A stretch of 63,557 nt of DNA from a virus (lineage: Duplodnaviria > Caudoviricetes), in IMG/VR virus record IMGVR_UViG_3300021791_000002, positions 1 through 63,557 of that record; one strand, written 5' to 3'. This document shows, piece after piece, positions 1,984 to 59,097 of this stretch. How positions within the stretch are numbered: position 1 is the first letter of the stretch; every line of letters starts with the position of its first letter. The translations under genes and the position numbers were made by a program. A model generated the notes under the pieces. The model was not told the origin of the DNA. It saw nothing but the letters and a program-made list of their open reading frames with translations, and did no database searches.

Positions 1984-2310
1984 ATGCGTACGATACTTGT
2001 AATATGTTTTTTTGCGTTATTCGGATGTAAGAGTGTATCGTACGAAACACCAAAACCTCCGTATTCCGGCGATTACAAGACAATTAATATTAGAGGAATG
2101 TGGAATTCTTGTTTTGGTTTACTCAGAAAGAACTCTTCAGGGGTCGATCTCCGATTAGCCGCTTTGCATTGTGATTGCATAGTTGACAAGACAAGGGGAT
2201 TATATGTTTTTAAAGTTTTTAAAGATTTAGATTCTAGTGAAGCAGGAGAGGCATTTAAGGATTTTTCTTTAGAATGTTTCTTAAGACAAAACCCTTCAGC
2301 AAGATCATAA
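1984..2310 (+). CDS. Putative lipoprotein
   Basis: Signal peptide with lipobox-like LFGC; further paired Cys residues. Confidence 0.55.
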   Translation: MRTILVICFFALFGCKSVSYETPKPPYSGDYKTINIRGMWNSCFGLLRKNSSGVDLRLAALHCDCIVDKTRGLYVFKVFKDLDSSEAGEAFKDFSLECFLRQNPSARS

Positions 2311-2311
2311 G

Positions 2312-2551
2312 ATGATGAGTGTAGTTGACGATGTCACCAACCTATTAAATGCAGTAGGACTACCTGTAGGAATCACAATAATTTTAATGTGGTTTATTAA
2401 GTATCAATTCGACAATTCAAGAAGTGAACGAGAGGAGGCGCGAGAGGACAGGCAAAAATTTGATCAAAGAATGATTGAGGGATTTACAGAGATCAAGCTT
2501 GCAGTAGAGCAACAAAACAGATTGATATCAGAATTTTTGCGATTGAAGTAA
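2312..2551 (+). CDS. Holin-like membrane protein
   Basis: One N-terminal TM helix (VGLPVGITIILMWFI) plus coiled coil; lies upstream of the endolysin. Confidence 0.5.
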   Translation: MMSVVDDVTNLLNAVGLPVGITIILMWFIKYQFDNSRSEREEAREDRQKFDQRMIEGFTEIKLAVEQQNRLISEFLRLK

Positions 2552-2808
2552 TGCCAAGAAAGTCGAGTGAAAATTTCAATAATTATTTACCGTTAATATT
2601 ATATTTTGTTCGTGCTGCTTTACCTTTCGCAGAATTATTTTTAATAGGGTGGATAATTTATTATGTTTTCAACACAGACGGGATTTCAAAAGAGATGACT
2701 AATATTCTGTCAGCTTGTGTCGGGGGACTACTCGTTAATTATACAAAGATGAGCGGTTTTATATTTTCCAAGGAGAGTGATCCATCAAACTCAAATTACA
2801 GAGGCTAA
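2551..2808 (+). CDS. Membrane protein, holin-like
   Basis: Two hydrophobic segments; lysis-cluster context; TAATG coupling. Confidence 0.45.
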   Translation: MPRKSSENFNNYLPLILYFVRAALPFAELFLIGWIIYYVFNTDGISKEMTNILSACVGGLLVNYTKMSGFIFSKESDPSNSNYRG

Positions 2809-2809
2809 T

Positions 2810-3001
2810 ATGATAGGAGTATTAGGAACAGTTGGACTTGCTGCTGCGAAGACGTTAGTTGTTAGTTTGCTGACGGAGAAAATGATTCTCAAACTGACAC
2901 TGACACTACTAGAGTGGGCAGTAGACAGGACAAGCAATGAAGTTGACAATCAGCTTGTTGGAATGATGAGAGAACAGCTTCGGAAGACAGGAGTCCTATG
3001 A
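2810..3001 (+). CDS. Small hydrophobic protein of the lysis cluster
   Basis: ATG at 2810 after GAGG; stop overlaps the endolysin start. Confidence 0.5.
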   Translation: MIGVLGTVGLAAAKTLVVSLLTEKMILKLTLTLLEWAVDRTSNEVDNQLVGMMREQLRKTGVL

Positions 3002-3471
3002 GGATTGCCCAAAACTTCACGCTTGAGGAGTTCACAAAATCTCAACAAGCAGAGAGGTTGGGTATAGATAATTCCCCTCAGAAGCCAGAGCATCTTGTAA
3101 ACTTAGTTTTATTAGCTCAGAACGTCCTTCAACCTATTAGAAACGCACACGGCCCGGTTATTATTTCTTCAGGATACAGGACGGTTCAAGTCAACAGGGC
3201 AATCGGAAGCAAATCTGACACTTCCCAACATTGCATAGGACAGGCAGCAGATTTTGAATGCATCGGAAGTATATCAAATTACGATTTAGCAGTTTGGATT
3301 CAAGAGTGTTTAGATTTTGATCAATTAATTCTTGAGTGTTACGATCCTAAAAAGGGGATGAATAGTGGTTGGATTCATTGCAGTTACAATTTAGAAAAAA
3401 ATAGATCAGAAAAACTAACAGCATCTTTTGAAAACGGTGAGATGAAGTATCAAAGGGGGCTAATAGGGTGA
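2998..3471 (+). CDS. Endolysin, peptidase M15A family
   Basis: NFTLEEF start, ISSGYR, SQHxxGQAAD and WIH Zn-peptidase motifs. Confidence 0.9.
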   Translation: MRIAQNFTLEEFTKSQQAERLGIDNSPQKPEHLVNLVLLAQNVLQPIRNAHGPVIISSGYRTVQVNRAIGSKSDTSQHCIGQAADFECIGSISNYDLAVWIQECLDFDQLILECYDPKKGMNSGWIHCSYNLEKNRSEKLTASFENGEMKYQRGLIG

Positions 3472-3477
3472 TGAGTC

Positions 3478-56958: not shown

Positions 56959-56987
56959 TTCCACCCTAACTTAGGAGATTATTTAAG

Positions 56988-57455
56988 ATGGAATCTGCAA
57001 AGATTAGGGCAAGTTCTGTAAGTCAAGAAACCCGACACGTTAAGATAGTCCCCACCACCACTGATTTAAGTGCTGGGGATTTGATTCTCGATTCGGGTGG
57101 AGATGGAACGTATGATATTGTTCTCCCGGCAGGAGCATTTGTCACTGGAGTAAGCACTCGGCATTCTGCTGTCTTCAACACTGGTGACGGTAGTACTGTG
57201 TTGGTCAATGTTGGCACTTCAGCAGATGCAGATGCATTCCTAACGGGTGCGGCAGGTGCTGCTGGTGATTTGGAACATGCCGGGAATATCGCAGACACTG
57301 CTGTTTGGGGAGTAACTGCTTCTGATAACATTGTGCGTATCACAGTGACGACATCGGCAGCAGTTTCCACAGTTGGAGTCGGATACGTTTGGGTTAGTTA
57401 CAGGTTTGCTCCTGACAAGTCTTGGAGTCAAGACACGATCACTAATCCTGCCTGA
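56988..57455 (+). CDS. Capsid cement/decoration protein
   Basis: Directly after the MCP; LPAGAFV...F...VGTSADADAF beta-rich pattern. Confidence 0.6.
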   Translation: MESAKIRASSVSQETRHVKIVPTTTDLSAGDLILDSGGDGTYDIVLPAGAFVTGVSTRHSAVFNTGDGSTVLVNVGTSADADAFLTGAAGAAGDLEHAGNIADTAVWGVTASDNIVRITVTTSAAVSTVGVGYVWVSYRFAPDKSWSQDTITNPA

Positions 57456-57475
57456 CTAGCGTCAGGTAACGAATA

Positions 57476-57568
57476 GTTTTACGCCAGACAATCAGGATTG
57501 AAATTGTGTTCCGATGATTCCGAGGTATCTGGGGACAACAGGGAGTTCTGTTTTGTTTGGCGTAAAGC
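57476..57568 (+). ncRNA. Candidate multibranch intergenic RNA structure
   Basis: 16-bp closing stem GTTTTACGCCAGACAA/TTGTTTGGCGTAAAGC (two G-U pairs) enclosing up to three hairpins. Confidence 0.4.
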
Positions 57569-57592
57569 TTAAACTTCAACGAGATTAAAATT

Positions 57593-58081
57593 ATGGCAGA
57601 AGCAGGAGGTCTTGTAAAAAGACGCAGATCAAAATCACAATTTAAGGAACCCGATTTATCCAACAGCTATCTTGACAGTGGGACAGGCAGGGTAATACAG
57701 ATTTCCGGTCAGGAGCAGATTGCAATGCAGTATGATAAGCATCAACATGCTCATTTGCCCGAAGGATTTTGTGTTATAAATGTTGATATTGGTAATGAGC
57801 CTCATCAACAGGCACCGATTTCTGTAACTCATTTTGATTGGACAATCAAGATACCCCGTGGGGTTGATTGTATTGTTCCACTACATCATGTGCAGATACT
57901 AGAAAATGCGGTGATCACAACGTATCAACAGCCTGTTTATGGTGAGGCATTAGTGGCAATCCCCACCAAGTTGCATCCTTTCACAGTAAAAAAGTGGCCC
58001 AAAGCTGATGCCGCTGGAGTTCCTATTGAAGTGATTCAGTCTGCAAAAACAAAACATGAGAGTATTGATGTGGACGATTAG
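57593..58081 (+). CDS. Hypothetical head-module protein
   Basis: IPRGVDCIVP..HVQILENA motif seen after N4-like capsid genes. Confidence 0.55.
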   Translation: MAEAGGLVKRRRSKSQFKEPDLSNSYLDSGTGRVIQISGQEQIAMQYDKHQHAHLPEGFCVINVDIGNEPHQQAPISVTHFDWTIKIPRGVDCIVPLHHVQILENAVITTYQQPVYGEALVAIPTKLHPFTVKKWPKADAAGVPIEVIQSAKTKHESIDVDD

Positions 58082-58083
58082 TT

Positions 58084-59097
58084 ATGAATCGCGGAGAAAT
58101 TCGGAAGCGTATTGAAAGCGCATTGCAAGATGAGACGAATCGTCATTGGACTGATGATAACATCAACTTTTATATAGATGATGCTCAAAAAGAATTCGTC
58201 AGAAAAACCAAGCATCCTACGACCACCGCGCAACTGTCAATCGGACCTTCCGCCGATAAGACTGGTACGATTTCGGTCGATGGGAGGACGCTTACCGCAA
58301 GTTCGACAGGTCATAGTTTTTTAGTAGGAGATGCAATTTACTTCACAGGTTTTGCACCTGTGACAGAGTATGATGATCAGACTTTTATAGTCAGAAGAAG
58401 TCTGGAGAACAGTTTTGTTTGTTTATTAGACCAAGCGCAGTCAGGCCCGGCAATCACTGATGCGAGTGGTTCCTTCCGCAAGTTAGGTCCAACCTTTTCA
58501 AAACCTTCAGAAATTTCGGAGATTCTTTCAATTACGTTAGACGGAGTTGAGTTAGAGTTTCTTTCAGAGGGTGAAATCAACGCTTTAGCATTCCGGAGTT
58601 CTGGGGACAGTCATATGTTGAGCGGTGAATTTGGTTTAATCCCAAATCCTTTTGACACAAAGATTCCAGATTCAGGAGAACATGCGACACGGTGGCGTGA
58701 TCAGCAGGGGGCAATACAAGCGGTTATAATGACAAGTCGGTTTGCAACTACATTTCGTATTTATCCGGTCCCATATCAGATTGAACACATGTATATTGAC
58801 AAGGAAGCGGACACGAAGATTTTCAAGACATTTGAGATTAGAGGTGTAGTTTCAGTGACAAAGTTAGCAACTGACAGCAGCACTCCACAGGTCAACGAGG
58901 TTTGGCATGAGGCATTAGTACTAGGTGCATTAGAGAGGGCATATTTAAAGGAGACGAATTTGAGGAATGTAGAGAAATCTATGTCTTTCCAGCAGAAGTT
59001 CACAGACATAACAAGAGAGTGTCAGTTGAGCGAGAGTATAAATTCTGCATCGTACGGTGGAGGGAGAAACGAGAATGTAATGCGGGTAGTAAGATGA
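58084..59097 (+). CDS. Head-tail adaptor protein
   Basis: LQD....WTDD.IN.YIDDAQ N-terminus, IYPVP, WHEALV.GAL.RAY. Confidence 0.75.
   Translation: MNRGEIRKRIESALQDETNRHWTDDNINFYIDDAQKEFVRKTKHPTTTAQLSIGPSADKTGTISVDGRTLTASSTGHSFLVGDAIYFTGFAPVTEYDDQTFIVRRSLENSFVCLLDQAQSGPAITDASGSFRKLGPTFSKPSEISEILSITLDGVELEFLSEGEINALAFRSSGDSHMLSGEFGLIPNPFDTKIPDSGEHATRWRDQQGAIQAVIMTSRFATTFRIYPVPYQIEHMYIDKEADTKIFKTFEIRGVVSVTKLATDSSTPQVNEVWHEALVLGALERAYLKETNLRNVEKSMSFQQKFTDITRECQLSESINSASYGGGRNENVMRVVR

Follow-up and report, generated by a model that had tools for sequence, protein, structure and literature searches.

The 63,557-base window analysed here is an entire IMG/VR virus record (IMGVR_UViG_3300021791_000002; linear, approximately 85% complete, with a G+C content (GC) of about 0.42), and Pfam and PHROG scans of its open reading frames (ORFs) identify it by gene content as the genome of a tailed phage. 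The palindromic hexamer CGTACG occurs 25 times in the window, where it forms the invariant core of a longer element with soft arms, the 16-bp palindrome TGCATCGTACGATGCA. From sequence comparisons, and with a probability that we place at roughly 60%, these sites are read as operator-type binding sites of a phage-borne dimeric protein, spread over the genome. An initial annotation of this DNA, made from its letters alone, had proposed dispersed binding sites for a dimeric host or phage protein; the sites themselves are favoured by comparative data, namely the arms, the occurrence of the element in 63 of 80 contigs fetched with a SprT-like protein, and conservation in a close relative (L235), whereas the identity of the reader we infer.

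The excess of CGTACG is real and statistically robust. All 25 cores listed in the initial annotation were found at their positions. Dinucleotide shuffles of the window gave a mean of 3.48 copies and a maximum of 9 (0 of 100 reached 25), and the enrichment persisted in codon-preserving shuffles within genes, a control that the annotation had itself suggested (6.52 ± 2.19 copies, maximum 16; 0 of 1000 reached 25). Among the 2080 strand-symmetrised hexamers of the window, CGTACG ranks first (z 8.3). Synonymous-swap chains that forbade the 65 strongly avoided words gave a mean of 5.1 copies (maximum 12), and chains that forbade all 71 absent hexamers gave 5.8 (maximum 11), each run being short, with 22 correlated samples. 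Because shuffles and constrained chains stay at 3.5-6.5 copies, composition, codon usage and word avoidance fail to explain the excess. Furthermore, GTAC as a whole is depleted (135 observed versus 182 expected), and the excess is therefore specific to the CG-flanked form.

The sites occur in all three codon phases and in different gene classes. Eight copies lie in codon phase 0, 12 in phase 1, 4 in phase 2 and 1 is intergenic, on both coding strands, in agreement with what had been claimed (the ORF over site 52104 is doubtful, and site 59051 lies within two overlapping ORFs). Twenty-three of the 25 copies are well inside ORFs; early, replication and structural genes carry them alike, and the distances between them vary irregularly (coefficient of variation 0.75).

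Moving outward from the core, the arms favour A (30 of 50), T (39), G (23), C (37) and A (34), positions that carry 0.46, 0.79, 0.24, 0.99 and 0.47 bits respectively, and positions +6 and +7 carry no information. The statement that about 20 cores extend to CGTACGAT[G/A/T]C on at least one arm was borne out by direct count (20 of 25, with 22 such arms in all, 12 + 10), and positions 18006-18019 do form a perfect palindrome, which reads GCATCGTACGATGC. Matches to TGCATCGTACGATGCA with no more than three mismatches number 14 in the window, against 0.17 by chance; the core is perfect in all 14, good arms around a damaged core were seen nowhere in the window, and such arms are absent around five control palindromic hexamers. 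The window holds 14 strong sites and 11 weaker ones. The motif contains about 18.5 bits, and 11.3 bits would suffice for 25 sites in 63.5 kb; at this information content, 25 sites could be singled out in approximately 9 Mb, a specificity that fits the 0-5 copies of the 10-mer ATCGTACGAT found per bacterial genome (see below).

The two arms of a site behave independently, since arm symmetry within sites (60 of 125 positions) equals that in shuffles (60.1) and no covariation is visible. Single-strand folding energies of -0.1 to -3.6 kcal/mol are no better than those of shuffles. Independent arms and the lack of a folding advantage point to sequence readout and not to a hairpin. The view that the motif acts at the level of DNA and not of protein is upheld by these sequence-specific arms without covariation, together with the use of all three codon phases.

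The same palindrome was found beside SprT-like genes in other phages. In the window, the SprT-like gene (45127-46395, minus strand) belongs to a leftward operon that starts at a 548-bp intergenic region, and this region contains site 48443-48458. In a reverse search, 80 unrelated viral contigs with GC of 0.36-0.67 were fetched by the SprT-like protein, and 63 of them carry at least one site at no more than three mismatches. These 93 sites (2, 33, 31 and 27 at 0, 1, 2 and 3 mismatches) compare with sixty half-site-shuffled control palindromes that hit a mean of 3.0 contigs and a maximum of 13 of the 80. A site lies no more than 500 bp upstream of the SprT-like gene in 49 of the 80 contigs and just after the gene in 5, and in a logo built over 71 unique contexts the core positions are conserved in 67-71 of 71. 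Sites in these other phages overlap the -35 box, the spacer, the -10 box or the +1 position of sigma-70-like promoters, in a register that varies by lineage, which argues for an operator and not for a promoter element.

Individual cases illustrate the arrangement. A 37-kb contig of a different phage (G510:C1, GC 0.46) carries four near-perfect palindromes of 22-26 bp, of the form T(4-7)GCATCGTACGATGCA(4-8), two of which lie about 45 bp upstream of gene starts and have a common leader; this contig is the same DNA as L012/L076 and L163, with identical site contexts, and was counted once. Two further phages, known only via the exact 14-mer, have the palindrome on a promoter (L023, GC 0.57, and L093, GC 0.62); in one layout the site comes after TATAAT, at +1, and in the other it forms the spacer of TTGACA-N17-TACGGT. 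When L023, L093 and G510:C1 are compared with the window clade, the SprT-like protein is the sole shared protein. The arrangement recurs in a cultured phage of Microcystis, Mel-JY33, with promoter, site, a 60-aa ORF and the sprT-like gene in order. Across phages, co-occurrence with the palindrome is seen for the SprT-like protein alone, a protein that the initial annotation had not flagged: every other protein cluster is limited to at most 19 of the 80 contigs, except one 24-contig cluster that is taken as an antisense-ORF artefact over the SprT-like gene. Upstream of the SprT-like gene, and on its strand, the neighbour is commonly a GpA-type terminase or an AAA_25 protein, and the SprT-like family comprises 1944 representative clusters at an E value of 1e-30 or better. 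As side observations on G510:C1, one long palindrome begins 11 bp past the stop of its SprT-like gene, and a D12-class adenine methyltransferase split in two ORFs lies directly upstream of that gene (21876-22632, corresponding to L245 1876-2632).

Within the window, only site 48443-48458 is placed so as to overlap a promoter, and the other 24 have no -35 boxes. The matching place in the relative L239 carries paired sites (7257/7301), with another site upstream of its helix-turn-helix (HTH) and SprT-like genes, and in L230 the SprT-like gene directly follows an HTH gene, which has a site about 380 bp upstream of it. Site 48443-48458 is probably the ancestral operator position, and the window clade keeps this ordinary operator position in addition to sites spread through its genes.

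Relatives of the window were collected through portal, capsid and terminase searches, which returned short viral contigs at 66-77% protein identity; a metagenome search added L235 (95% terminase identity) and L239 (68%), and the primase as query found zero relatives. CGTACG ranks 1 of 2080 hexamers in L230 (26 versus 9.1 expected), L223 (14 versus 4.3), L226 (9 versus 2.2) and L224 (10 versus 3.3), and its excess is significant in L239 and L235; it does not rank first in L228 (7 versus 4.7) or L231. Core density reaches up to 1.5 per kb in a relative. The arms of the relatives prefer the same bases, more weakly (58, 64, 46, 68 and 55 of 122).

Conservation was assessed in a 19.6-kb alignment with L235 at 89.2% identity. 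The core is kept in 9 of 9 window sites, against a fraction of 0.590 for control hexamers (P = 0.0087), 86 of 90 arm positions are identical, and no more than four differences in 144 site positions would arise with a P of about 3.4e-4 (hand arithmetic). L235 has one additional site where the window has CTTACG. Judged from this alignment, the sites appear to be under purifying selection at short range. Codon alignments reveal that sites arise where the protein permits, often via several synonymous changes together: one phage encodes R-T as AGG ACC where another has CGT ACG, and S-V-R appears as AGT GTC AGG or as AGC GTA CGT. Closer relatives have 5 of 8 to 5 of 11 sites in common, with control hexamers at about 0.2. 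Conservation at synonymous positions in related phages, a second check named in the initial annotation, holds at 89% identity (L235) but gives way to turnover at about 70% protein identity; like the codon-preserving shuffles, this check came out in favour of the motif. In the head-gene region of three relatives (L223 at 9023, L225 at 11574 and L226 at 3782), CGTACG lies in the loop of a larger hairpin whose stem (ATCCCCG...CGGGGAT versus AGCCCTG...CAGGGCT) carries compensatory changes, and the window at the matching place, 57455-57593, has no site; this hairpin is probably a terminator with the element in its loop.

The sites persist in a genome that lacks many other palindromes. In the window, 21 of the 64 palindromic hexamers are wholly absent, including AACGTT (17.6 expected), TTCGAA (15.6), CAGCTG (10.8) and GGATCC (10.8), and further words are avoided, among them CCWGG (0 observed versus 55 expected), RGATCY (6 versus 72) and CTNAG (113 versus 205). 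The strongest avoidance in the genome is that of the non-palindromic AATGG/CCATT (24 versus 109 expected, z -11.8), which may be the target of a type I/III, bacteriophage exclusion (BREX)-like or other asymmetric system. Six related contigs of about 98 kb (L230, L223, L226, L228, L239 and L235) have no copy of 22 palindromic hexamers, and CGTACG is the only G+C-rich palindromic hexamer retained in them, enriched 2.5-fold overall. CGCG is absent in relatives (0-1 versus 17-30 expected) and normal in the window, and GCAGC-type words are likewise avoided in relatives and not in the window. This pattern of purging suggests hosts with many, differing restriction systems. An ArdA antirestriction protein is encoded in L230 (3014-3520, minus strand; Pfam E value 6.8e-28), and ArdA was undetected in the window.

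As to the reader, the best candidate is the SprT-like protein acting as a homodimer, a tentative choice to which we give a little less than even odds. The window protein matches PF10263 (E value 1.2e-9), and its alignments contain HExxH and four conserved Cys, with a C-terminal zinc ribbon. Its N-terminal KAKP-repeat basic extension is common to L230 and L239. A model of the short SprT-like protein (predicted local distance difference test (pLDDT) 90.5) has its best fold matches in the SPRTN protease domain (6mdw and 6mdx; for 6mdw, E value 3.9e-3 and TMq 0.37), with IrrE/PprI far behind. Prediction of a homodimer scored 0.57 against 0.01 for the best control, at a pLDDT of 78 and with at least 77% of contacts agreeing across three runs; among proteins of solved structure, 20 of 30 known as pairs and 1 of 23 known as single chains scored that high. 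The model supports, short of proof, pairing as a symmetric homodimer, and a palindrome in the promoter is what a dimer regulating its own gene would be expected to use. The KAKP run (46000-46300) is long and resembles a histone H1 tail. Metagenome runs show very high summed contig depth at 46010-46676, presumably a low-complexity coding repeat drawing unrelated contigs.

Another phage regulator is possible and somewhat less probable as the reader, for example the Xre-type HTH (HTH_3) protein encoded at 42479-42916 on the minus strand. Two HTH proteins had been named as candidates in the initial annotation: that at 42479 is a true Xre-type HTH protein, conserved in L230 (where its gene stands beside the SprT-like gene) and in L239, whereas that at 32047 has a weak PHROG match only. 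A host factor is a distinctly poorer candidate: phages from different habitats, with GC of 0.36-0.67 and a cyanophage among them, carry the identical operator, which makes such a factor unlikely. The serine recombinase (40513-41268) was considered because of the TA at the centre of the site and the A/T tracts that flank it in G510:C1; it was dropped as a candidate, since recombination at 25 sites would scramble the genome and since most motif-bearing contigs lack it. Small ORFs between the site and the SprT-like gene were also rejected, being mutually non-homologous and absent where the site is no more than 100 bp from the gene.

If the sites are operators, TGCATCGTACGATGCA would be read as double-stranded DNA by a symmetric, phage-encoded dimer. 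Most carrier phages would hold one to four copies over promoters of an early operon with a SprT/Spartan-like gene, and in the marine clade the element would have been copied, by largely synonymous point substitution, into the 25 places of the window. Most window copies, in genes and without promoter boxes, would be retained by selection despite the near-total purge of G+C-containing palindromes. The sites may then mark the whole phage DNA or load it with protein, silencing or organising it, or bringing a DNA-dependent protease to DNA-bound proteins; this purpose of the dispersal we infer. That occupancy of the whole phage DNA matters is suggested by the absence of promoters, the presence of sites in all kinds of genes, their turnover, their kept number and their specificity relative to a bacterial chromosome. 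The idea of protease recruitment draws on the Spartan-like fold, the basic tail and the restriction pressure (the purge, and ArdA in L230), and the link of the sites to protease action is conjecture. A bolder version, which we consider rather unlikely, is that the SprT-like protein is itself the reader, a sequence-specific, DNA-tethered dimeric protease that represses itself elsewhere and that here, with an H1-like tail and dozens of sites, coats or patrols the chromosome and cleaves host proteins acting on phage DNA, for instance restriction enzymes or other defence proteins bound to DNA. If true, this would be a cis-acting, self-marking counter-defence, and it would explain one favoured palindrome in a purging genome.

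Several findings weigh against reading the sites as dispersed operators. At about 70% protein identity positions turn over, the window having none of 15 L230 sites, and only 4 of 26 L230 cores have good arms, most of the excess there being core-only and possibly of another cause. Near-sites with one flank (CGTACH/DGTACG) are depleted, at 23 versus 49 expected, and a conversion drive would give the same. Sites are absent in 17 of the 80 SprT-like contigs and in a Desulfofustis phage. At 0.22 per kb, strong sites are no denser in the window than in some ordinary phages (L272 has 4 sites in 12.6 kb); what is unusual in the window is the spread into genes and across the genome, not the density. 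On the side of the protein, the match to the SPRTN fold is weak (a template modelling (TM) score of about 0.4), and SprT/Spartan proteins are known as structure-specific or non-specific DNA binders and are not known to read a palindrome. The SprT-like gene may also simply be first in the operon of a regulator that lies more than 6 kb away, or that is too small or divergent for clustering.

The main rival, improbable in our estimate, is that the element resembles the highly iterated palindrome HIP1: a host-universal CGTACG methyltransferase would protect the site, methylation-linked mismatch repair or conversion bias would create and maintain it, along the lines that Elhai proposed for cyanobacterial HIP1, and the phage would only mirror its host. 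CGTACG is a classic type II target (BsiWI/SplI). A core of methylase type, the sole G+C-rich palindrome exempt from the purge, is what a host-methylated site would be. The roughly two-fold depletion of sites with one CG flank beside the enrichment of full sites also speaks for it, as do the fast turnover of positions and the many weak-armed cores of L230. HIPs have been linked to orphan methyltransferases (Elhai 2015, PMC4390886, from the available portion of that article). Against this rival stand the lack of any mention of CGTACG in that portion, the information across 16 bp and the identical palindrome on promoters in phages of GC 0.36-0.67 in diverse settings, which no single host trait explains, and Pfam and PHROG scans of the window ORFs (of a record about 85% complete) found no DNA methyltransferase gene.

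The search for a host in which the motif is iterated also tells against it. The 10-mer ATCGTACGAT has 5 copies in the window; none of 657 bacterial genomes showed host-wide iteration of it, with at most 5 copies in each. These were 401 genomes from the class of G001 (0-5 copies), 251 from the class of G003 (0-4) and 5 assorted genomes (1-4), samples thin enough that a narrow host clade could be missed, and the negative is provisional. The 401 include three unpublished genomes and one limited genome, on which the negative does not rest. The proposal that the palindrome is a host fingerprint or a HIP1-like host trait consequently found no backing in these genomes. The G510 bin has an ordinary 221 CGTACG cores in 1.8 Mb, and all 4 of its 10-mers are on one phage contig; another of its contigs, G510:C2, is richer in CGTACG (10 copies over about 33 kb, or 0.3 per kb, versus 0.12 per kb across the bin) and may be another mobile element. 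The exact 14-mer occurred in bacterial genome contigs as single, seemingly random occurrences among the matches listed, and in viral contigs in 98 stretches, about the chance level by estimate, none of which has the clade signature; L023, L093 and L012/L076 come from this set. In the available part of one marine methylome study (PMC8919816), GTAC methylation appears only in a Euryarchaeota bin, and a second (PMC9516812) does not mention GTAC or CGTACG. The operator and HIP-like explanations could both be partly true, if the operator core were also a protected methylation site in the hosts of the clade.

The remaining alternatives fare worse. That the sites are weak promoters, in which a TACGAT -10-like hexamer on both strands of the core starts transcription genome-wide, is highly improbable. 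Some other phages do have TTGACT-N17-TACGAT with the core exactly as the -10 box; however, the register varies elsewhere, and -35 matches 16-18 bp from the 25 window sites, scored in both orientations, averaged 2.30 of 6 versus 2.50 at random places, with 0 of 50 reaching at least 5 of 6. In the window phage, the sites are not promoters. A structural hairpin or cruciform in DNA or RNA, serving as a processing, priming or termination signal, is barely credible: the motif in its best form is a perfect palindrome, and a copy in relatives does sit in the loop of a hairpin with compensatory stem changes, but the arms do not covary, the folds are no better than shuffles, many sites have only one good arm and an Rfam scan of the window gave zero matches. 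Least credible is a by-product of restriction-site avoidance and codon bias that funnels synonymous choices into CGTACG, for which very many words are avoided and CCCGGG offers a precedent (the constrained chain raises its expectation from 3.5 to about 9, with 13 observed, so that its excess is largely a by-product of the CCWGG ban), but which predicts 5.1-5.8 copies of CGTACG (from a short chain) versus 25 and leaves the arms and the L235 conservation unexplained.

Among known systems, the closest in number and spread are the stoperators of mycobacteriophage L5 and other cluster A phages, reportedly described by Brown et al. in 1997. In both cases a genome of about 50-60 kb carries some 25-30 copies of the binding site of a single phage regulator, distributed well past the immunity region. 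Stoperators differ in being asymmetric, oriented with transcription and placed in short intergenic gaps, whereas the element here is a palindrome with 23 of 25 copies within genes and is common to phages that otherwise share only the SprT-like gene. Mycobacteriophage repressors bind multiple asymmetric operators, according to the available part of PMC1934351. The palindromic form itself has parallels elsewhere, with 13-16-bp sites scattered, often within genes, along a replicon of about 60 kb or along a chromosome. Such are the KorB OB sites of plasmid RK2 and the ParB parS sites, dispersed palindromes that are read by a dimer and act at a distance; unlike these, the present sequence is unrelated and no ParB-type domain (ParBc) was matched by Pfam or PHROG in any window protein scanned. 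ImmR-ImmA and DdrO-IrrE are repressor-protease pairs, and L230 resembles them in having an Xre-type HTH gene directly followed by a zincin gene with a palindromic operator upstream. They differ in that SprT-like proteins are not M78, the HTH and protease genes of the window are apart, and many members have no HTH neighbour.

HIP1 of cyanobacteria (GCGATCGC) is alike in its 6-bp methylase-type core, softer flanks, occurrence in all frames, origin by substitution and turnover (available parts of PMC4390886 and PMC5861425). It differs in being a host-genome trait with about one copy per gene, whereas the element here spans 16 bp, has no sampled host carrier and is a promoter-bound operator elsewhere. 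SPRTN/Spartan, Wss1 (6mdw/6mdx) and ArdC share the joining of a zincin protease domain to DNA-binding parts. ArdC is a plasmid antirestriction protein with a metalloprotease domain, whose antirestriction is independent of the protease and which binds single-stranded DNA non-specifically (PMC7213743, in the part available). As antirestriction on a mobile element it offers a distant precedent, given the extreme restriction pressure on the window clade and the ArdA of L230; neither SPRTN nor ArdC is known to read a specific palindrome. No description of the palindrome or of its link to SprT-like genes was found in the literature outside supplementary files.

These findings tie a very large, unannotated phage protein family (1944 clusters) to a conserved 16-bp element, as a testable regulator-operator pair. 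They further present an operator that would have left its promoters and entered coding DNA through synonymous changes, under selection, in a lineage lacking about a third of 6-bp palindromes, and such a case would serve as a natural experiment on the benefit that a phage draws from marking its DNA. Were the reader a Spartan-like protease, it would be the first sequence-targeted member known to us and possibly a new principle of counter-defence.

The individual sites are given here as 16-bp spans, with mismatches counted against TGCATCGTACGATGCA and no strand assigned. The best are 18005-18020 (CGCATCGTACGATGCA), which contains the perfect 14-mer, and 43201-43216 (TGCATCGTACGTTGCA), whose core L235 keeps, each with one mismatch. 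Two mismatches are found at 28270-28285 (TGGATCGTACGATGCG), at 37144-37159 (TGCATCGTACGAATCA) and 37580-37595 (TACCTCGTACGATGCA) in the primase gene, at 48443-48458 (AGGATCGTACGATGCA), the sole clearly intergenic site, and at 59046-59061 (TGCATCGTACGGTGGA), which is conserved in L223 and L235. Sites with three mismatches are 2034-2049 (TGTATCGTACGAAACA), 8007-8022 (TGTATCGTACGTTTCA, within the gene of the 1877-aa virion protein), 8193-8208 (GGCATCGTACGATGAT), 31691-31706 (AGAATCGTACGATGCC, where convergent ORFs meet), 38565-38580 (TGAAACGTACGATTCA, primase gene), 40679-40694 (TGTATCGTACGAATCA, serine recombinase gene, identical in L235) and 44365-44380 (TGCATCGTACGCTCAA, helicase gene, identical in L235).

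Four mismatches are present at 12498-12513, at 16856-16871 within the 5066-aa ORF, at 35454-35469, at 41164-41179 in the serine recombinase gene (identical in L235) and at 52406-52421 in the portal gene (present in L234 and L228 too); five are present at 17186-17201, also within the 5066-aa ORF, at 22564-22579 and at 56638-56653 in the major capsid gene. The weak site 20843-20858 has a perfect core and arms matching at 4 of 10 positions. At site 1982-1997 (core 1987-1992), 3 of 10 arm positions match, and the ATG of ORF 1984-2310 lies in the left arm; the initial annotation had one copy containing the start codon of an HNH gene, and an ATG is indeed present at 1984 in the arm of site 1987, but the ORF (1978-2310) has no Pfam or PHROG match. 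The weak-armed site 52099-52114, upstream of the portal gene, keeps its core in L223, L224, L225/L230 and L235. A TTGACG -35-like box had been said to overlap a copy, and TTGACG at 52100-52105 does overlap this core, but no -10 box is seen at the proper spacing.

The gene content of the window comprises head and packaging genes (small and large terminase, portal, scaffold-like protein, major capsid and SU10-type adaptor), tail and virion genes (tail collar, chaperone, the 1877-aa internal virion protein, the 5066-aa ORF and cell-wall hydrolases), a replication and recombination set (PD-(D/E)XK / AAA_24 / DUF669, primase and an SNF2-type helicase), the small serine recombinase, the Xre-type HTH protein and the SprT-like zinc-protease-like protein. 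No tRNA genes were found in the window. The nearest cultured phages by tblastn reach only about 30% identity in terminase or capsid, and blastn of the window against cultured phages gave no match. These tblastn matches were to the terminase of Roseobacter phage CRP-7 and to capsids of Stenotrophomonas and Pseudoalteromonas phages, with further capsid matches at about 30% to Pseudomonas/roseobacter phages, which we take to be N4-like. Near-identical DNA was found in 20 sequencing-run rows holding all or part of the window, all of them contigs of marine plankton or seawater metagenomes, and no RNA dataset is listed among these rows. Contigs of four runs differ from the window at 70 variant positions; of the 40 listed, 0 fall within the 10 covered sites, where the expectation of about 0.6 is too low for this to be informative.

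The 5066-aa ORF (15741-30941, plus strand) is a single ORF that follows the internal-virion-protein genes and has 6 of the 25 sites inside it. A virion RNA polymerase with hairpin promoters was considered for it and found unsupported, neither half having a PHROG match. Both ends of the record (2-1525 and 62202-63557) lie in ORFs with RCC1-like repeats, and the contig may be a circularly permuted, near-complete genome cut inside one tail-fibre-like gene. The 255-aa protein at 47405-48172 matches only DUF7227/GP88-like viral proteins in Atlas and PDB sequence searches. The adjacent small ORFs 46851-47114 and 47153-47371 (minus strand) share their first 14 residues, an indication of a short, directly repeated gene start within the early leftward operon. 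Two further palindromes are over-represented in the window: TGATCA (35 versus 22) and GCTAGC (11 versus 3.5 expected, a figure that stays at about 3 when the avoidance constraints are imposed), the copies of the latter lying at 13707, 20072, 21774, 25358, 27473, 34887, 46361, 46373, 54510, 61045 and 61573, with conserved arms absent.

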